This document shows, piece by piece, positions 5,039 through 62,566 of a stretch of 64,000 bases of DNA. This DNA comes from Alphaproteobacteria bacterium (GTDB taxonomy: Bacteria; Pseudomonadota; Alphaproteobacteria; Rs-D84): contig JAWPOC010000014.1 of assembly GCA_033345235.1 (NCBI GenBank), forward strand, positions 3,872-67,871. Reading direction: 5' to 3'. How positions within the stretch are numbered: the stretch's first letter is position 1; every line of letters begins with the position of its first letter. The position numbers and the translations under genes were made by a program. The notes under the pieces are model-generated. The model worked only from the letters and a program-made list of their open reading frames with translations, had not been told where the DNA came from and made no database searches.

Positions 5039-5067
5039 TTGCAAAAGTAATCACATTACATTATAAT
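5039..5067 (+). promoter_or_regulatory. Sigma70-type promoter (TTGCAA, 17-nt spacer, TATAAT)
   Basis: TTGCAA at 5039-5044, exactly 17-nt spacer, TATAAT at 5062-5067. Predicted transcription start near 5075. Confidence 0.6.
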
Positions 5068-5074
5068 CACAATG

Positions 5075-5297
5075 CAATCGGAATCCAAACCATTGCAGGG
5101 GTGTAGCAACCCTTAATTTACAGATACCCGATTACATATCGGGATTTTGGAAGCGTACTCCGACCATCTGGTTGGAGGGCTGGTGGAATATAAAGAATAC
5201 ACCACACTATTTTCTGTAAATTATAGTTGCTAACCTCCAACCACCATATACGCGGTATTGCGTGGTTTCTTTTTAAAAAAGGAACGGTCGGAGAGAA
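5075..5297 (+). promoter_or_regulatory. Long structured 5' leader, copy 1 of a 3-copy family (candidate cis-regulatory RNA)
   Basis: Segment A CTCCGACC (5158-5165), B GGTTGGAGG (5170-5178), C CCTCCAACC (5234-5242), D GGTCGGAG (5286-5293, SD region). A pairs with B or D, and C pairs with B or D. A hairpin plus T-run follows at 5244-5274. Homologous leaders lie at 7658-7907 and 50024-50276. Confidence 0.55.
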
Positions 5298-7621: not shown

Positions 7622-7650
7622 TTGCGGCTGCCTTTATATTTATGTATAAT
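7622..7650 (+). promoter_or_regulatory. Sigma70-type promoter (TTGCGG, 17-nt spacer, TATAAT)
   Basis: TTGCGG at 7622-7627, 17-nt spacer, TATAAT at 7645-7650. Predicted start near 7658. Confidence 0.55.
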
Positions 7651-7657
7651 TTATATG

Positions 7658-7907
7658 TCGTCAGGAACAGCTGACGATGGGGTGTGACTACCCGTTGCAT
7701 ACGCGTCTGGGAAAGAATCAGTGCGCCGTTTGGCGTATTTTTTGTATCCAGATGAAAAAATACACTCCTGATCCTTAGTGGTCAGGAGGGTTGCGAATAT
7801 ATTGAATAAGCACACAATTCGTATGATTGTAGTCAACCTCCTGACCACTTTGTAGATGCAATGTGGTTTCTTTTTTAACAAAAAGGAAGATTTAGGAGTA
7901 AGACATA
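7658..7907 (+). promoter_or_regulatory. Long structured 5' leader, copy 2 of the 3-copy family
   Basis: A CTCCTGATC (7765-7773), B GGTCAGGAGG (7780-7789), C CCTCCTGACC (7837-7846), D TAGGAG (7893-7898). B:C extends to 13 bp. The loop shares GAATATA..GAATA..CAC with copy 1. A hairpin plus T-run follows at 7845-7876. Confidence 0.55.
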
Positions 7908-8249
7908 ATGTTGAAACAATTTATTACGACGTCATTTGTTTTTACGTTTGGCGTTATAACCACTGTAAATTCTGCCAGTCTGGATAATGATTTTGGCAAT
8001 AAATTACAAACAATATCCACGTTAGAAAACGATATTTTAATATTAGACACAGAAATCGCAAAGTGTGAAAAGTCCAAGAAAGGCTGGGTTGCGGCGACAG
8101 TTATTGGGTCTGCGGGCGTTGTGGCGACTGGGGTTGCTGCCGGCGTCCAAGGCGCAAAAATCAAAGATAAAAAAGCGGCCATAGAACAAGGTAATTCAGA
8201 TGTTAAAACATTAAACACAACATTACAGGGGTATAACAATGACAAATAA
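7908..8249 (+). CDS. Secreted coiled-coil / glycine-zipper protein (113 aa)
   Basis: Signal peptide, then ...ENDILILDTEIAKCEKSKKGWVAATVIGSAGVVATGVAAGVQGAKIKDKK. Same C...K-x-G plus Gly/Ala-zipper module as in 8239..9453 and 50277..51227. Confidence 0.7.
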   Translation: MLKQFITTSFVFTFGVITTVNSASLDNDFGNKLQTISTLENDILILDTEIAKCEKSKKGWVAATVIGSAGVVATGVAAGVQGAKIKDKKAAIEQGNSDVKTLNTTLQGYNNDK

Positions 8250-9453
8250 AATTAAAATCGCATTGGGTGTATTTGCATTGTTTCCAACTTTTGCGAATGC
8301 GGATGCACTGGATGATAAAATCGCGGAATTAACACGTCAAAAACTGGATAAAATTGCACAATTGGAACAATGCCAGAAATCGACCAAGGGATTAAAGATT
8401 GCAGGCATAACAACATTGGGTATCAGTGCAATTGGTATCGGCGCCAATATTGGCGAAGCGATTAAGATTAAAAAATTGGATAGCGAGCTGTCAACAATCG
8501 CAACAAAAAAGACAGATTTACAAAATAAAATCGACGCGGCTAAGAAAGAACAAGAAAAAGCAAAAAAGTCAGCGCAACAGTTGCCGCAAAACCAATTGCA
8601 ACAATTGTCGCAAAACGTGATTCCAGAGTGTGGAGAACAAACTTGTGCAGAATGGTCAGATGAACAATTGTTGGCATTAAATGTAACAGATGGTATTTGT
8701 GTATCTGGTGTGCGTAAACCTGTTGAATGCTATTCAGGTAATCCTGTTGGTGTTGCAGTACAATGTAAACAAGGTAATGAAATTATAACTTACTATGATT
8801 CATGCCAAACAGTGGAAGAAGTGACACCCGAAAACAAAGTCAGAAAATATCACGAAGATTGTTCGGCAGCTGAAACTGCGAATATACCATATGCCAAGAC
8901 TTCATGGTGGTATGTTGACAAGTGTGTTCCAAAATCATGTCAAGATAATGCGTATTTAACGGTAAAAAATGGCAGTTCTCAAGGCATATGCAGAACAATA
9001 TGTCCAGAACACCAAATTATAGATTGGTCGAATGGTGGCAAGGCGTGTGATATTGCGAAAAAAGAGAAGGTTACCCCACCACAGAACTGTACCAGAACAG
9101 AGATAGCAATCACGAATTATAAAACAGGTATTTGTGATACAGAATGCAATGAGTATGCAACTACAAATAATTGTACAGTGACTAAAAGCATATTTATGCT
9201 AAATAAAAATAAATGTATTTGTAATCCGACATTGCAAGATGAAATGATAAATGCATCAGAATTTCATAACAAGAAATCCGATGTTTCATTATCTGATTGT
9301 CCAGAAAAGTTATATCAGCGTATTAATCCAAGACAGTGCGAAAGTCTTTGTGCAAAATACGCAACAGACAACAATTGTAAGATTACAAAATTTGGTACTG
9401 TTTTGACATATAATTGCTATTGCAACCCCAGCAGCACCGTAACGTTGGATTAA
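8239..9453 (+). CDS. Secreted protein: N-terminal coiled-coil/glycine-zipper module plus C-terminal Cys-rich repeats (404 aa)
   Basis: Overlaps the upstream gene by 11 nt. Signal peptide ...FPTFANA. QCQKSTKGLKIAGITTLGISAIGIGANIGEAIKIKK. The C-terminal half has two copies of C-x11/12-C-x3-C-x2-YAT[TD]NNC-x-[VI]TK...C-x-CNP. Confidence 0.7.
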   Translation: MTNKIKIALGVFALFPTFANADALDDKIAELTRQKLDKIAQLEQCQKSTKGLKIAGITTLGISAIGIGANIGEAIKIKKLDSELSTIATKKTDLQNKIDAAKKEQEKAKKSAQQLPQNQLQQLSQNVIPECGEQTCAEWSDEQLLALNVTDGICVSGVRKPVECYSGNPVGVAVQCKQGNEIITYYDSCQTVEEVTPENKVRKYHEDCSAAETANIPYAKTSWWYVDKCVPKSCQDNAYLTVKNGSSQGICRTICPEHQIIDWSNGGKACDIAKKEKVTPPQNCTRTEIAITNYKTGICDTECNEYATTNNCTVTKSIFMLNKNKCICNPTLQDEMINASEFHNKKSDVSLSDCPEKLYQRINPRQCESLCAKYATDNNCKITKFGTVLTYNCYCNPSSTVTLD

Positions 9454-11800: not shown

Positions 11801-12143
11801 AAGCGGGCTTTCAAGTTGAGACAACAAACAAAAAAGACACTCAACCCCTGAAATTCTGCGGTTTACGGAACAGACGGTATGAATAGGGTTCTGATAAACT
11901 ACGCAAACATTGTGAATAAAAGCAGCTCATCAAAAATTCAAGAAGGGATGTGCAGACAGTTGAATTTGGAATATCCAAACTTTGACTAAGTCAAAAGTGC
12001 ATATCCTAGACAGGTAGTAGGTTTACATATTAAACCTCGTTAAAAACTTGTCTTGCGAATAATTATATATGTAAAGACGAACTGATTATTAAATAGTCAG
12101 CTTTTGTTTATATGCACGGGACTTACTTAACAGGTTTTTTTAG

Positions 12144-13644
<1,501 letters not shown>

Positions 13645-13724
13645 ATAGAGAATACCGATAACACGATATCGGTCAAATCCAAAGCGACTGTCTGAATATC
13701 TCTTTTTGAATGTGTCAAATCGCT

Positions 13725-13801
13725 GGGTCAGTAGTTCAGTTGGTTAGAATGCCGCTCTGATACAGCGGAGGTCGAAGATTCGAGTTCTTCCTGACCCACC
13801 A
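13725..13801 (+). tRNA. tRNA-Ile (anticodon GAU) in the 16S-23S spacer
   Basis: GGGTCAGTAGTTCAGTTGGTTAGAATGCCGCTCTGATACAGCGGAGGTCGAAGATTCGAGTTCTTCCTGACCCACCA. Cloverleaf with anticodon loop CT-GAT-AC. Confidence 0.95.
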
Positions 13802-14079
13802 CTTGTTTGATGAGGTTGGAATCAGCAGTGTAAAACACTTCTGATTCCAGATATTCCAAGAATATCCTCGGAATCTGCTTTTATTTAGCAAACATTGTTA
13901 ATCGGTTTTTATGTCACAAATCAAGAAATTGATTTGTTGAACATCGTAATCTCAAATTCTTTCTGAAAGAGTAATCACGAAAGTGATAATTCAATTTAGA
14001 AAAGCAAGAATCAACTAATGCTTAAAAAACTCATTAAAGTGTTCTTTTTAAGTTTGAAGACTTTCTCTTCAAGCATAAG

Positions 14080-16833
<2,754 letters not shown>

Positions 16834-16927
16834 ATCGTCTTGACTTTTAATCAGTCAGACGGTATGCTTGAAGAGAACGTTTAAGATATGATTCTTAGGA
16901 ATAATTATGATGTTCTTGCTGGATTGA

Positions 16928-17043
16928 TTCTGGTGATTATTGAGCGGGAGCCACCCTCTGTTCCATCCCGAACCAGACAGGGAAACCCCGTATCGCCGAT
17001 GGTACTTTGGTTTAAGCCACGGAAGAGTAGGTCGTCGCCAGAA
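16928..17043 (+). rRNA. rrf: 5S ribosomal RNA
   Basis: TTCTGGTGA...CCCATCCCGAACCAGA...CGCCGATGGTACT...AGAGTAGGTCGTCGCCAGAA with a terminal helix. Ends are approximate. Confidence 0.9.
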
Positions 17044-26800: not shown

Positions 26801-26955
26801 TTGTCATTGCGAGCGGCAGCGTGGCTGTGTCATACGAAGCACTCTGTGCGAAGTATGGCAATCCAGTAAATGCCGCAAAAATTACCTGCCCCCAGTGTGG
26901 GGCGGGACGGAATTCCCGACAGTTTATTGTCGTTGGAATGACGGGGTGGGGGGGA
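26801..26955. repeat. Composite palindromic-element block (left flank of the 1097-aa gene)
   Basis: TTGTCATTGCGAGCGG...GCAATCCAGTAAATGCCGCAAAA, then TTACCTGCCCCC..GGGGCGGGACGGAATTCCCGACA.TTTATTGTCG.TGGAATGACGGGGTGGGGG. Repeated in direct orientation at 30736-30941. Confidence 0.85.
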
Positions 26956-30439: not shown

Positions 30440-31030
30440 CCCCCCATTTTTTTGTCGTTCCTGTACTACCCCCTTGTCATTCCTGCACCCCCTATGTCAT
30501 CCTGTGGCTCTTGTCACGCCTAGCGCAGGCAGGAACACAGGACCCAGGTTTGGCCTTAGAATAAAAAGGCAGGATGACCTGGGTTCTGGACTCAAAGGTC
30601 CAGAATGACAAATTTTTTTGCAAAAATTTGTAACAAAAAAGCATAAATTACTGGATTGCCACGTTCACTTGCGTTCCCTCGCAATGACAAGGTTCTTAAG
30701 TTCTCTTTTCTTATATTATCATTGCTTTTACTTTATTGTCATTGCGAGCGGACGCGCAGCAATCCAGTAAATGCCGCAAAATAACAAAGCAAAACATTGT
30801 TCAAGAATAAAAAACTTAAAAAACTCTGTCATCCTGTGGCTTGACCACAGGACCCAGGTTTGGCCTTTTTTACCTGCCCCCTTGGAGGGGCGGGACGGAA
30901 TTCCCGACAATTTATTGTCGCTGGAATGACGGGGGTGGGGGAAAAGGTGACCAACTACATCCCCCCCACCCAAGTTTTCGTAATTGCGTTGCAATAACTC
31001 AAACTATCCCGCCCCACGTTGGGGGCAGGT
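30440..31030. repeat. Cluster of at least 7 palindromic intergenic elements from 3 families, in both orientations
   Basis: GTCATYCTG..CAGGACCCAGGT family at 30494-30548, 30569-30609 (inverted) and 30826-30859. GTCATTGCGAG..GCAATCCAG family at 30651-30690 (inverted) and 30736-30775. ACCTGCCCCC..GGGGCGGGA family at 30871-30941 and 31007-31030 (inverted). Confidence 0.8.
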
Positions 31031-49962: not shown

Positions 49963-49987
49963 CTCGTTTTTTTGACGAGTTTTTTTA
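49963..49987 (+). terminator. Rho-independent terminator
   Basis: CTCGT-TTTTTTG-ACGAG followed by TTTTTTT. Confidence 0.7.
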
Positions 49988-50023
49988 TTTGTTTGTCATA
50001 TCAGATTGTGATAACATTCAAAA

Positions 50024-50276
50024 TGAATTGGTGGAGACACCCGTTCGGGGCTTTCACAGGCCTTGCTCATTCGGTGCGAAACAAGGAAATGTTGCCTGTT
50101 GGATAACGTTCCTGTGGTTTTGCATCGTCATTTGTCCCTGACTGTAATAGGTCGGGGGGCTGTTTGCCATAAAACAGGGTTCGCCCGAAAGCAAATGGAA
50201 TCAATAATGAGCTGATTGTGAACCCCCCGACCGCTGTTGTCTTTGCTGCGGTTTATTTTTTTAGATGGGGGGTATT
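50024..50276 (+). promoter_or_regulatory. Long structured 5' leader, copy 3 of the 3-copy family
   Basis: Extended -10 TGaTAACAT at 50009-50017. A TCCCTGAC (50135-50142), B GGTCGGGGGG (50150-50159), C CCCCCCGACC (50223-50232), D GATGGGGGG (50264-50272, SD). A T-run follows at 50252-50262. Confidence 0.5.
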
Positions 50277-51227
50277 ATGAAACCTTTTAGTAAAACAATG
50301 ATGTTGGGTGCGCTTTTGGTGCCGAATATCGCATTTTCTGCGTCGGATGGATTGACACAGGCGCTGCAAAGCGTACGACAAAACTGTGGCGGGATATCTG
50401 AATTGATGTCCGATTTAAAAACCAAAGCGGGAATTAATACCGCAATAACCGGCGCAGGTACTGTTGCAGGCGGCGTCGCGTTGGGAACAGGTATTGCCAA
50501 AGCGCAAAAAGATTCGAAAATAGATGAAATAGAACAGCAGTTGATGGATATGTTAGAACAGGCGTCTGCCACCGAAAATTTCGAAGCAGAAACTTTGTAT
50601 TTGGACATAGATGCGGTTACAGCTGCAATTGAAAAAGGGCAGGCGGACGAAGCTAAAAGAAAAGAGTTGATTTCAGAACTGAAAACTTTGACCGCAGAAT
50701 CTAAAAAGTTGGGCAATGTGCGTACAGGTACGATGGCGGCGGCAACTGTTACAAATATCGCGGGCGCTGCAATTGCAGGCACAAATAAAGTTGACGAAGA
50801 TTTATCTGCCAGAATTGGCGCGTGTGTCAGTTATGTAAAACGGTTGGCTGATGTTAAAATGCAGGCGCATATCGAAGGCAGTGCGACATCTGCAGAAATC
50901 GCACAGGTGGACAAAATTATTTCTGCGTGTGATAAATGGTCGACGGTTGATTTAAGTCCAATTAACAAACGTGCAACAGGTGCGGCCGTATCCAGCGGTA
51001 TTGGCGCAGGCTTTGGTTTGATTGGAACAATCACCAGTGCCAGTGCGAACAGTGATAAAGTTCGCAGTGGTGATGCCAAACAAGAAAAGAACTTGAATAC
51101 GGTATCGAATGTTATGGCCGGCACAACGGCTGCGGCCAGTTTAACGTCGACTATATTTAACGCGACCCAGATTTCTGCAATTAAACACGCGGCAACTGTT
51201 GCCGACGAATGCCAAGGAGCACTGTAA
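50277..51227 (+). CDS. Secreted protein with about 4 coiled-coil/glycine-zipper modules (316 aa)
   Basis: ATG 50277 gives the signal peptide MKPFSKTMMLGALLVPNIAFSA with a GGGGGG SD; the track start 50265 lies inside the SD. Modules include NCGGISELMSDLKTKAGINTAITGAGTVAGGVALGTGIAKAQKD, GNVRTGTMAAATVTNIAGAAIAGTNK and NKRATGAAVSSGIGAGFGLIGTI. Confidence 0.7.
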   Translation: MKPFSKTMMLGALLVPNIAFSASDGLTQALQSVRQNCGGISELMSDLKTKAGINTAITGAGTVAGGVALGTGIAKAQKDSKIDEIEQQLMDMLEQASATENFEAETLYLDIDAVTAAIEKGQADEAKRKELISELKTLTAESKKLGNVRTGTMAAATVTNIAGAAIAGTNKVDEDLSARIGACVSYVKRLADVKMQAHIEGSATSAEIAQVDKIISACDKWSTVDLSPINKRATGAAVSSGIGAGFGLIGTITSASANSDKVRSGDAKQEKNLNTVSNVMAGTTAAASLTSTIFNATQISAIKHAATVADECQGAL

Positions 51228-52555
51228 TGAAAAGAATTTATTTATCTAGTTTGTTAGCGATAATTGCGCTGACGTCAAATGTGTTTGCAGCCAATATAGT
51301 TGGCAAGCAACAAATTAGTCGCAAAGCAGTTTTAAAAACCATAGAAACATATAAGTCAATGCCCGCACCACATTCGTGGAATTTAGTTGGTGATGTCTTT
51401 TATAAAACAAAAGCCGGTTTTTTACAGTGTATAAATAATTATACGAAAATAACAACAACGGATTTTGCATATTGTTGTGGAATATCTGGACTGGGGGCCA
51501 GTGCCGCAGAATGTGTTGATTTAGTAAAAATGGCCGTTGATATTCATAATGATATGGTGCGGTCTTATATCAAGACAGCGGGTCTTGGGAATGTGTGCAG
51601 TGCCGAAGATTTAAAGACAGTTCCAAATGCTGTTGCGGGCAGATATTCTATGATAAACGGTGTTTATAAGTGTGTTGCAACAGAATGTAAAACAGGTTAT
51701 TACTTAAAGAAAAACGCCAAAGGCGAATCCCAAGGATGGTGCGCATATGGTACAGATCCATATGTTCCATTTCGACCAGATGTTGAAATGCCACAGTCGC
51801 AGGTTACATTGTTGAATGTTGAACCGTTACAGGCAGAGCCAATAAATATACAATTGAATACAACTGTTTTGGCAGATGATCCAGAGTTTGCGCAACAGCT
51901 AGAAGATATTCAAAAGAAAGCGGATGCAGAAAAAGTGGCATTGGTGCGCCAAGCGTTGGCAGATCAATCTAAAGAGCAGGAAATTCAATTGCGTGAACAA
52001 GGCAAACAATTGCTGGCGACACAAAAAGAAGAATTAAAACAAGAGAAAAAAATAAATCGACTAGAAACGCAACAAGCTAAGCTGCAAAAAAAGGTTGATG
52101 CAAACAAGCAAGAACAAGAACTGCAGAAACAATGCGACGAATTAAAACTGAGTAAGGCAGATTGTACAAAGTACAAGAAAAATCCAGACGCCTTTTTGGA
52201 AGAAAGGGAAAAGGAACAAGAATGTGAAAGAATGGGGTTAAATAAAACAGAGTGTGCAAAATACCATAAAGATCCAGATGCGTACCTAGCAGAGGTTGCA
52301 AAAGAAGCAATGTGCAAGGAGTTAAATTTAAATGCTGTTGAATTTAACAAATGTAAAAAAGATCCTGTTGCATATAAAATTGAATGGAATGAAAGAGAAA
52401 TTGCAAAAGAAGAGGCGGAAAAATTAAAGAAAGATAAAAAGAAAGCCAAGGCCGATAAAAAAGCAGAGGCTGCTGCGCTGGGGTTGACTGTTGCTGAATA
52501 TGAACGTTACTTGAAAAACGAAGCGACGTTAAAACAGTTAAAAGAAGGGCAGTAA
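51227..52555 (+). CDS. Secreted protein: N-terminal Cys domain plus Lys/Glu-rich region with three ~31-aa Cys-pair repeats (442 aa)
   Basis: TAATG overlap with the upstream gene. Signal peptide MKRIYLSSLLAIIALTSNVFA. CVATECKTGYYLKKNAKGESQGWC. Repeats CDELKLSKADCTKYKKNPDAFL, CERMGLNKTECAKYHKDPDAYL and CKELNLNAVEFNKCKKDPVAY. Confidence 0.7.
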   Translation: MKRIYLSSLLAIIALTSNVFAANIVGKQQISRKAVLKTIETYKSMPAPHSWNLVGDVFYKTKAGFLQCINNYTKITTTDFAYCCGISGLGASAAECVDLVKMAVDIHNDMVRSYIKTAGLGNVCSAEDLKTVPNAVAGRYSMINGVYKCVATECKTGYYLKKNAKGESQGWCAYGTDPYVPFRPDVEMPQSQVTLLNVEPLQAEPINIQLNTTVLADDPEFAQQLEDIQKKADAEKVALVRQALADQSKEQEIQLREQGKQLLATQKEELKQEKKINRLETQQAKLQKKVDANKQEQELQKQCDELKLSKADCTKYKKNPDAFLEEREKEQECERMGLNKTECAKYHKDPDAYLAEVAKEAMCKELNLNAVEFNKCKKDPVAYKIEWNEREIAKEEAEKLKKDKKKAKADKKAEAAALGLTVAEYERYLKNEATLKQLKEGQ

Positions 52556-59893: not shown

Positions 59894-60388
59894 TTATCTT
59901 TCTGGTTGTGGTTGTTGTGACGGTATTGTTCGTAAATCGGGCGCGATGTTTAATTCTGGATTTGTCTTTATTATATTTTGTAATCCACTGACGACATCGC
60001 GTGCAATTTTATCGTTTTCTATATTCAAGTTGCTATACATCCATTGTTTATTACCGTTTGGGTGTTCTTTGATGATTTTGTTTTTGACGTATTGGTCATA
60101 TGTTGCCTGCAGCAAGTCAAAAACCTTTTGTGGATTCCCAGAATATTGATTTGGCAGTGCTAAATCAATTCCAAAATAAGACCCACTGCGCCCATTTTTA
60201 TCAAGAAACGCTTTGTTCGGATCGCCATAGACCACATACACATAATGCGTTGTATTGTTTTTAGTAACCATTTTTCTGTATATGCCTGTTCTGGATGTAT
60301 TAAAAGATTGTAATAAACGGGCAGTGTTCTCGTCGCATTTAGAATGTTGTTCACCCATTGGTACGCCAAAAACAGTTAAATTCGCCAT
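59894..60388 (-). CDS. Hypothetical protein (164 aa), paralog A of 62075..62566
   Basis: Shares MA...V.GV..G.....C, GR.GSYFGI, F.LL.ATY..YVK.KII.E.PNGN..WM and a Pro-rich tail with the 163-aa protein at 62075..62566. Terminator at 59866-59896. Confidence 0.6.
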   Translation of the reverse strand: MANLTVFGVPMGEQHSKCDENTARLLQSFNTSRTGIYRKMVTKNNTTHYVYVVYGDPNKAFLDKNGRSGSYFGIDLALPNQYSGNPQKVFDLLQATYDQYVKNKIIKEHPNGNKQWMYSNLNIENDKIARDVVSGLQNIIKTNPELNIAPDLRTIPSQQPQPER

Positions 60389-62074: not shown

Positions 62075-62566
62075 ATGGCAGAAATAGTTGTTCATGGTGT
62101 CGTGCAGGGACAAGAAATATCACAATGCAGCAAAGAGGCAATGGAGTTTTGTGGACTATATTATATACCTGAAACAGGGATTAGAACTGATATAAAACGT
62201 CTGCCAAACAATCGCATGGCATATAGTTTATTGGTTTACAACGAACCTGGTAAGTCCTTTAAGAGTTATTCCGGACGTGCTGGCTCTTATTTTGGAATAA
62301 CCGTGTTTTTTCAAAATCAACAAGTAGCGAGTCCAGATGATTTGTTTAGGCTTTTGCTTGCTACATATAATAATTATGTAAAAGGAAAAATTATACAGGA
62401 ATTTCCAAATGGGAACAGAAAATGGATGGTTCAAACATTGTGCGATCCAAATGATACAGTTGCTAAATATGTTGTCAATGGTTTTGCAAAAATCCATGCA
62501 AAATATCCCAGTTTGATAAAAATTCAACCTTTGCCACCATTACCACATCCCGGTCGTGATTATTAA
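62075..62566 (+). CDS. Hypothetical protein (163 aa), paralog B of 59894..60388
   Basis: See paralog A. AAAGGA SD upstream. Confidence 0.6.
   Translation: MAEIVVHGVVQGQEISQCSKEAMEFCGLYYIPETGIRTDIKRLPNNRMAYSLLVYNEPGKSFKSYSGRAGSYFGITVFFQNQQVASPDDLFRLLLATYNNYVKGKIIQEFPNGNRKWMVQTLCDPNDTVAKYVVNGFAKIHAKYPSLIKIQPLPPLPHPGRDY

Follow-up and report, generated by a model that had tools for sequence, protein, structure and literature searches.

A structured 5' leader RNA family in gut Alphaproteobacteria, with a candidate terminator/antiterminator switch

Introduction

Several kinds of bacterial regulatory RNA are relevant to the element described here. Riboswitch expression platforms and attenuators choose between a terminator and an antiterminator, as in the 1:2/3:4 versus 2:3 pairing of the trp type and in the T-box. 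Translational riboswitches that sequester the Shine-Dalgarno (SD) sequence and RNA thermometers, such as ROSE and fourU, form a second kind, and the CcsR or 'cuckoo' family a third; the latter are multi-copy alphaproteobacterial RNAs that act in trans and carry CCUCCUCCC CCUCC-type anti-SD motifs in hairpin loops. Here, we describe a leader that lies upstream of a secreted-protein gene starting at ATG 50277 in a 64,000-nt stretch of an Alphaproteobacteria bacterium genome (contig JAWPOC010000014.1, positions 3,872 to 67,871), hereafter called the window. A sequence-only reading of this window had regarded the leader as the third copy of a translational switch whose helix strands covary with the gene's own SD.

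In predicted function, the closest known kind is the terminator/antiterminator leader of the riboswitch or attenuator type. As in those leaders, a promoter-proximal structured domain is followed by a hairpin and U-tract before the open reading frame (ORF), one strand (C) is common to the terminator stem and to a second helix (B:C), and another strand (A) is able to sequester B. The leader differs from the known examples in that no known aptamer was matched, no conserved leader peptide or T-box sequence was found, the competition is between repeats (B0, A, B and C) of SD-like or anti-SD-like sequence, and the genes do not form a metabolic regulon. It resembles the SD-sequestering riboswitches and thermometers in having an anti-SD-like pyrimidine strand near the ribosome-binding site, which could form a 6-8-bp C:SD duplex in copy 3. 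However, this complementarity is not conserved, C instead has a conserved partner in B (or B0), and a hairpin and U-tract lie between C and the SD. The likeness to the CcsR or 'cuckoo' RNAs lies in the multiple copies and the CCUCC-type motif, whereas the anti-SD-like motifs are here part of the helices of a leader that would act in cis; the Rfam scans of the leader matched no model for such RNAs.

Overall structure of the leader RNA

The best explanation for window positions 50022-50262 (forward strand, as for all three copies) is an approximately 240-nt structured 5' leader RNA with its own extended -10 promoter and at least eight helices. It belongs to a family of at least about 26 non-redundant members from gut and rumen alphaproteobacterial metagenome-assembled genomes (MAGs). 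The family has two subtypes; copy 3 belongs to one of them, and copies 1 and 2 to the other. Folding of the copy-3 subtype with RNAalifold (alignment A4, 10 sequences) revealed a nested structure of 61 pairs, composed of Pa, B0:C, LR2, X:X', H4, A:B, P2 with a small hairpin, and the terminator stem. Over the 62 pairs counted, 95% of the alignment cells were paired and 29 pairs were changed on both sides. The covariation score was 0.40, compared with 0.20 for shuffled alignments (reached by 0 of 500, to be read as a count) and about 0.07 when the partners were slid. When B:C was added as a pseudoknot, it was 96% paired, and its pair B9:C2 was AU in three sequences, GC in three, GU in three and UA in one.

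The other subtype (alignment A5, 11 sequences) showed a similar picture. X:X', A:B, a P3 hairpin and the terminator were 90% paired together, with a score of 0.28 against 0.16 for shuffled alignments (0 of 500). A:B alone was 91% paired and B:C 98% paired, with four of its nine pairs compensated (GGUUGGAGG/CCUCCAACC, GUCAGGAGG/CCUCCUGAC and GGUCAGAGG/CCUCUGGCC). X:X' was paired at 8/8 positions, with many pair types, in all eight sequences that MAFFT had aligned correctly. In one member of this subtype (L133), reading of the sequence showed that all four strands had changed together (B0 CAGGG, A CCUCUGAC, B GGUCAGAGG and C CCUCUGGCC). The terminator stem uses the AACC or GACC of C in essentially every member, always starts with the AACC of C in A5, and itself covaries (GUC/GAC, GCC/GGC, ACC/GGU and ACU/AGU).

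Folding energies agreed with these comparisons. The 271-nt copy-3 region had a predicted energy of -101.9 kcal/mol with z=-4.94, and none of 200 shuffled sequences was as stable; z-scores of -5.4, -5.1 and -4.7 were obtained for copy 1, copy 2 and the leader of an orthologue, respectively. As judged from sequence covariation, the leader is a genuine structured RNA in which B has two alternative partners, A and C. The conserved switch framework of the sequence-only reading is thus retained, as both helices of B are more than 90% paired with compensation, but sequestration of the SD is not what defines it. Its statement that the repeat was hard to explain as chance needs to be divided: by our estimate, about six single 10-bp inverted repeats are expected in 64 kb, while the recurrence and covariation in relatives exceed chance.

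The window copy begins as a separate transcription unit, because the acyl-ACP thioesterase gene upstream ends in its own intrinsic terminator (49963-49990; terminator scan and sequence). A putative extended -10 promoter (TGTGATAAC) is located at 50007-50015; it was read from the sequence and was not flagged by the terminator scan. Sequence comparison revealed a TGnGATAnAAT box at an equal distance in relatives, and a TGnTATAAT-type box lies just upstream of the leader in relatives. The predicted transcript start of copy 3 is at about 50021-50023. An ATG at 50023, one base before the start given in the sequence-only reading (50024), approximately coincides with this start. A conserved leader peptide beginning there was considered and rejected, because this ATG is absent in three members (L123, L135 and L146).

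The 5' domain opens with Pa (50025-50046; A4 columns 7-15:20-28), a hairpin with a GAGA (GNRA-type) loop in which 6/9 pairs are compensated. It is followed by B0 (50047-50050), an invariant GGGG that the RNAalifold consensus presents as a potential partner of the CCCC within C (50225-50228). Two long-range helices then begin. LR2 joins TCACAG (50054-50059) to TTGTGA (50216-50221), with 4/6 pairs compensated, and X:X' joins GCTCATT (50065-50071) to AATGAGC (50206-50212), with 7/7 pairs compensated in the copy-3 subtype. X' also falls in the loop of a possible AATCA/TGATT hairpin, as read from the sequence. H4 (50072-50127) pairs CGGTGCGAAAC (50072-50082) with GTTTTGCATCG (50117-50127) around a variable hairpin; 92% of its cells are paired, and its sequence is mostly conserved.

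The switch strands follow. The pyrimidine-rich strand A (TCCCTGAC, 50135-50142) forms a local hairpin with the purine-rich strand B (GGTCGGGGGG, 50150-50159), which is 91% paired and present in the minimum-energy folds; by the pair counts, the partner of B is either A or C. P2 (50160-50198) pairs CTGTTTGC (50160-50167) with GCAAATGG (50191-50198), with 6/8 pairs compensated, and encloses a conserved ATAAAACAG stretch and the GGG-UUCG-CCC hairpin (50177-50186; 3/3 pairs compensated). C (CCCCCCGACC, 50223-50232) can pair with B, or it can pair through CCCC with B0 and through GACC in the terminator stem. The terminator-like hairpin (50229-50262) pairs GACCGC (50229-50234) with GCGGTT (50248-50253), is 95% paired and ends in the U-tract TTTATTTTTTT (50252-50262). 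The terminator scan passed over this hairpin because its loop is 13 nt, and the scan range was 3-8. The SD (D, GGGGGG) lies at 50267-50272, 4 nt before ATG 50277. The positions and sequences of A, B, C, the GGG-UUCG-CCC hairpin, the SD and the start codon given in the sequence-only reading were all exact.

A candidate transcription attenuator

We propose that the leader probably controls the secreted-protein gene at 50277 in cis, through a terminator/antiterminator switch that is either riboswitch-like or a factor-dependent attenuator. The hairpin and U-tract share 4 nt with C (GACC; AACC in the other subtype). Since the 3' end of C belongs to the terminator stem, B:C and the terminator are mutually exclusive; B:C would therefore be the antiterminator, and A (with B0) the anti-antiterminator. 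A hairpin and U-tract lie between the structured domain and the ORF in nearly all members. In all three window copies, the hairpin overlaps the last 3-4 nt of C and leads to a U-tract that precedes the start codon by 15-35 nt, and the combined pattern of C, hairpin and U-tract has exactly 3 sites in the window compared with 0.00 expected. The overlap with C suggests that the conserved output is transcription attenuation. The sequence-only reading had mentioned neither the hairpin and U-tract nor the promoter and the approximately 115-nt structured 5' domain.

In the proposed mechanism, the off fold would be the default: the 5' and 3' halves would be zipped together by X:X', LR2 and B0:C, A would hold B, and the terminator would form. 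A signal that freed B, or that blocked A:B or the closing helices, would allow B to pair with C; the terminator would then be disrupted, and transcription would read through into the gene. In copy 3, the CCCCCC of C might additionally cover the GGGGGG SD wherever a read-through transcript retains the terminator hairpin, which would be a local rather than a conserved addition. The minimum-energy fold of the window copy (-97.0 kcal/mol) contains A:B and the long-range closing helices.

Several observations weigh against this model. The fold with B:C forced in the window copy lies 11.6 kcal/mol above the minimum-energy fold; for this reason, the default state is predicted to be terminated, and the on state would need kinetic or factor help. 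B:C crosses X:X' and LR2, so that it must be either a pseudoknot or mutually exclusive with them. The pairs of B0:C in the copy-3 subtype are invariant GC wherever the column is present, and this helix is therefore neither supported nor refuted by covariation there. The U-tract is weak or missing in three members (L122b, L195b and L212). Both alignments consist of 10-11 related sequences, and their shuffle counts are not probabilities. Finally, the downstream genes of the members encode orphan secreted proteins, a YadA-anchor adhesin, HTH_3 regulators, a UDG-superfamily protein and a PLD-like lipoprotein, and such a heterogeneous set gives no pointer to a metabolite.

A broader and more speculative view, which we regard as doubtful, is that the leaders form a new riboswitch or attenuator class, in which the two subtypes are interchangeable sensor domains on one platform of SD-like (B0, B and D) and anti-SD-like (A and C) strands that controls surface proteins, adhesins and mobile-element genes. 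Given that A and C resemble the 16S 3' end (CCUCC) and B resembles an SD, such a platform might sense free 30S subunits, or else a small molecule or protein. On this view, sRNA-Xcc1 (RF02221), an RNA discussed below, would be a reduced relative that acts in cis and not in trans. If the leader is a true regulatory element, it would represent an undescribed structured RNA family of about 180-245 nt with at least eight helices and with subtypes swapped between orthologous genes. It would also be an orphan riboswitch-like candidate, with surface and secreted proteins under its control, from an uncultured and little-known lineage of the gut.

Relationship between strand C and the Shine-Dalgarno sequence

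The foremost alternative to transcription attenuation is a purely translational four-segment switch, in which A:B with C:SD would be the off state and B:C the on state, and the SD would co-evolve with B and C. We consider this explanation unlikely. It had been expressed in the sequence-only reading as a three-way covariation of B, C and the SD. B:C and A:B covary throughout the family, and the SD match is present in the three window copies, but the match is lost in the closest relatives. L123 and L124 have A, B and C identical to those of the window copy, yet their SD is AAGGGAGGA (GGGAGG), which leaves an internal A-C mismatch and gives a duplex of -8.2 kcal/mol. Similarly, L151 (C CTCCCCGACC) and L156 (C CCTCCAACC) have identical ribosome-binding regions behind different C strands, and L103a, L088 and L090 combine CCTCC with GGGGG SDs. 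In L121, L122a, L122b and L146, the Watson-Crick C:SD runs are only 3 nt long, and these members rank near the bottom. Members in which C does not complement the local SD thus exist, which is an outcome that the sequence-only reading had named as refuting it, and the claim that SD identity tracks B and C is not supported as it was stated.

To quantify this relationship, we calculated duplex energies of C against positions -18 to +3 of each start in 25 non-redundant members and compared own with permuted combinations. The energies were -8.18 (own) and -7.37 kcal/mol (permuted) for all members (p 0.003), and -7.83 and -7.24 kcal/mol when the window copy was left out (p 0.016). For the copy-3 subtype, they were -8.43 and -7.53 kcal/mol (p 0.03), and without the window copy -7.52 and -6.94 kcal/mol (p 0.10). 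These p values are optimistic because the members are phylogenetically related. The same comparison for A and D gave p values of 0.002-0.03.

Some individual members do fit the translational explanation. Among the 25 members, the C:SD match is longest in the window copy, with a 7-nt Watson-Crick run and -16.6 kcal/mol, the strongest in the family, and enforcing C:D there yields a fold within 2.3 kcal/mol of the minimum for the complete 5' untranslated region. L195a (B GGGGTG, C CACCCC and SD GGGTG) and L195b (C CTCCCC and SD GGGGAG) also track their strands. Perfect complements of the member's own A are found in copy 1 (GGTCGGAG) and in L141 (AGTCGGGAC). In addition, GGGGG occurs at -20 to -1 in 7/26 leader-linked genes, whichever C type they have, compared with 2/47 window genes. 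This excess of G-run SDs might hint at a wobble-tolerant partner for the pyrimidine strands, or it might be a lineage bias.

Part of this complementarity is given in advance. The 16S 3' end is the usual CCUCC (GGATCACCTCCTTT), so that any SD is partly complementary to the CCUCC-like strands A and C; the GGGGGG of copy 3 can still pair with the ribosome via G-U. D is complementary to the CCCCCC of C only in copy 3, where masking of the SD by C is a plausible prediction. Furthermore, a purely translational switch assigns no role to the conserved hairpin and U-tract that overlap C. SD tracking is therefore at best a weak tendency, contradicted by the nearest relatives, and not a conserved, co-evolving feature of the family. 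An SD that co-evolves with the strands of a switch would be an unusual design principle, which the present evidence does not establish.

Comparison with sRNA-Xcc1

Searches of Rfam 15 revealed no family at its gathering score in the three window leaders or in L121. The isrK, Phe_leader and Leu_leader matches were rejected as generic combinations of a hairpin and U-tract. The only model with a more specific similarity was sRNA-Xcc1, which scored 31.6 bits on 50150-50240 (E=0.0011 in a 451-nt search) and 32.4 bits on L195 (9852-9944), both well below the gathering score of 53 bits. It gave no match in whole-window scans, in copies 1 and 2 or in L121. sRNA-Xcc1 was detected as an RNA of approximately 88 nt (PMC2996969), and the published loci lie just upstream of symE or of an ORF6N-domain gene.

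We found the two RNAs to be partly similar in architecture, with clear differences. They share the topology of a three-way junction, which a G-rich/C-rich P1 (GGNCGGGGGG/CCCCCCGNCC) closes, and in both the 5' strand of P2 is followed by an AUA(C/A)AA(U/C)A stretch, two hairpins, the first of them small, and a UUUGAG-like joiner that precedes the 3' strand of P1. Each also lies a short distance before a gene of the same orientation, and the families of the downstream genes differ. In contrast, the Xcc1 core CCCGNAAGGGGAA is replaced by GGG-UUCG-CCC-GAAAG here, and the core AUACAAUACCCGNAAGGGGAA and hairpin CCCGNAAGGGG are not found in the window leader. sRNA-Xcc1, at about 88 nt, is without the approximately 115-nt 5' domain, X:X', LR2 and A, and not every Xcc1 has an SD-like P1 (that of Neisseria is GGACGCGUGG). 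Two further Xcc1-like loci contain the core. One of them (L208:1180-1275), on a Nitratidesulfovibrio plasmid, has a P1 of GGCCGGGAG/CUCCCGGCC and lies about 55 nt before a co-oriented hypothetical protein gene; the other (L209:1185-1275), in a Neisseria gonorrhoeae record, has a P1 of GGACGCGUGG/CCACGCGUCC. The position of the former suggests that Xcc1 may be a cis leader, and a distant relationship between the leader and sRNA-Xcc1 is possible. If the leader is a true regulatory element, the published sRNA-Xcc1 may likewise act in cis.

This similarity also bears on the idea that the leader is an independent trans-acting small RNA, a distant relative of sRNA-Xcc1 whose A and C strands target other mRNAs, with the downstream gene being incidental. 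An RNA of about 240 nt should accumulate given the leader's own promoter and terminator-like end, the matches to RF02221 fell below threshold but arose in two independent members, and Xcc1 was itself detected as an RNA. Nevertheless, we judge this idea to be improbable. Every member lies directly before a co-oriented start codon, which leaves no space for, and no sign of, a separate promoter; the conserved fold places A and C in helices and not in exposed loops; and the Xcc1 loci themselves are found just upstream of genes (symE, the ORF6N-domain gene and the hypothetical protein gene in L208).

Distribution and exchange of the leader subtypes

Family members were gathered from the upstream DNA of orthologues, a protein-guided metagenome scan, iterated nhmmer searches, a genome pattern scan and pattern scans of viral contigs. 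Leaders of the copy-3 type, with the same 5' domain and A/B/C strands, precede the orthologues in L123 and L124 (72% and 71% protein identity) and in L126/L127 (59%). Leaders of the copies-1/2 type precede the orthologues in L120, L121 and L122 (57-65% protein identity) and have the conserved core GCGAATATATTGAATAAGC...CTATTTTC...ATAGTT..AACCTCCAACC. The two subtypes are related, since an nhmmer profile of the copies-1/2 type detects the copy-3 type weakly (E about 1e-4). Further orthologue look-ups added no members of the copy-3 subtype: no leader was present at P0010, P0013 and P0016, and P0009 had the other subtype.

The scan of genome contigs with the pattern of C and terminator gave three true members (L088, L090 and L103) among about 110 matches listed, the rest being chance-like. 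This pattern repeatedly matched Erwinia/Pantoea loci (L017, L032, L054, L062, L066, L076, L080 and others), which probably represent one conserved terminator locus of the Erwiniaceae, unrelated to the leader family. The scans of viral contigs gave three true members of the other subtype (L211-L213), two of them near-identical; another viral-contig match, L210, was rejected as chance.

A third, divergent variant was found in L141 (680-1040, minus strand), with A GTCCCGACT, B GGTCGGGAT and C ATCCCGACC. Its U-tract is directly followed by the ATG, with no SD in front; the complement of its A, AGTCGGGAC, is instead located at codons 4-7 of the PLD-like lipoprotein gene.

Comparison of orthologous loci showed that the leader behaves as a module. 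In every member, the start codon lies 0-75 nt past the U-tract on the same strand. Most of the more distant orthologues lack a leader and have just a promoter of the TGnTATAAT type, about 35 nt upstream of their start; because the promoter type is the same, the leader is an inserted regulatory module. Between the window copy and L123, the leader is 94% identical and the coding sequence 75%, and the ribosome-binding regions are unrelated. The orthologues L151 (908-1257) and L156 (9762-10058) are 81.5% identical at the nucleotide level and have an identical 25-nt ribosome-binding region, but the leader of L151 is of the copy-3 type and that of L156 of the other type. The 3' arm of the terminator marks the junction, which indicates that leader modules were exchanged by recombination.

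A dispersed repeat or miniature mobile element (of the miniature inverted-repeat transposable element, repetitive extragenic palindromic or Correia-like kind), with a coincidental SD match, would account for three intergenic copies with inverted repeats in 64 kb, for the exchange of subtypes between orthologous genes and for the occurrence of other GC-rich palindromic repeats in the genome, but it is highly improbable, as orientation and start-codon distance are fixed, terminal inverted repeats, target-site duplications and near-identical window copies were not seen, and the copies have diverged beyond the reach of blastn while their helices remain compensated, which argues for selection on RNA structure and against recent transposition.

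Separately, a GC-rich repeat of about 60 nt (GGGGCGGGACGGAATTCCCGACAnTTTATTGTCGnTGGAATGACGGGGTGGGGG) occurs in the window at 26890-26955 and 30887-31015, in a genome of 40% GC. Similar GC-rich palindromic elements are located in intergenic regions of the related contigs L125, L168 and L169.

Copies 1 and 2, downstream genes and other features of the window

Copies 1 and 2 were located, by reading the long gaps before secreted-protein genes together with the pattern, before ATG 5298 and ATG 7908, in agreement with the sequence-only reading, which had mentioned both copies. A blastn search with the leader against the 64-kb window revealed no further copies, and the three known copies are too diverged to be detected in this way. 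Copy 1 (5074-5297) has a -10 box TATAAT at 5062-5067 and a hairpin and U-tract that extend to 5274. Its strands are X (5115-5123), A (CTCCGACC, 5158-5165), B (GGTTGGAGGG, 5170-5179), X' (5214-5222) and C (CCTCCAACC, 5234-5242), and D, the GGTCGGAG that complements its A, is located at 5286-5293. Copy 2 (7657-7907) has TATAAT at 7645-7650 and a hairpin and U-tract to 7876; its strands are A (CTCCTGATC, 7765-7773), B (GGTCAGGAGG, 7780-7789) and C (CCTCCTGACC, 7837-7846), and its SD is AGGAG (7894-7898). Copy 2 also contains an extra hairpin and U-tract (GTGCGCCGTTTGGCGTATTTTTT) at 7723-7745, inside the 5' domain, and a similar insert is present in L103b. The match of Rfam isrK to this extra hairpin was weak and generic terminator-like, and it was rejected.

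The gene downstream of copy 3 (50277-51227, forward strand) encodes a 316-aa secreted protein with a signal peptide and is followed by a gene for a 442-aa partner. Pfam revealed no family for the target genes of the three window leaders, and the 316-aa protein has homologues annotated solely as hypothetical, in MAGs of 'Alphaproteobacteria bacterium'. The gene units behind copy 2 (7908-9453) and copy 3 (50277-52555) both consist of two genes. The products of the copy-2 and copy-3 genes have in common a signal peptide, a coiled-coil stretch, a Cys...K..KG motif and a Gly/Ala/Thr-rich segment; these features suggest that they are distant paralogues within one surface-protein family, and none of them has a Pfam match. 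The copy-3 leader is nearly invariant among strain variants, and the thioesterase protein encoded upstream is present on metagenome contigs from human samples.

Two further features of the window were observed. The rRNA operon at 12143-17043 has tRNA-Ile as the only tRNA in its 16S-23S spacer, and tRNA-Ala was not detected there. The genes at 59894-60388 (reverse strand) and 62075-62566 (forward strand) are divergently oriented paralogues that encode proteins of about 164 aa with 40% identity.

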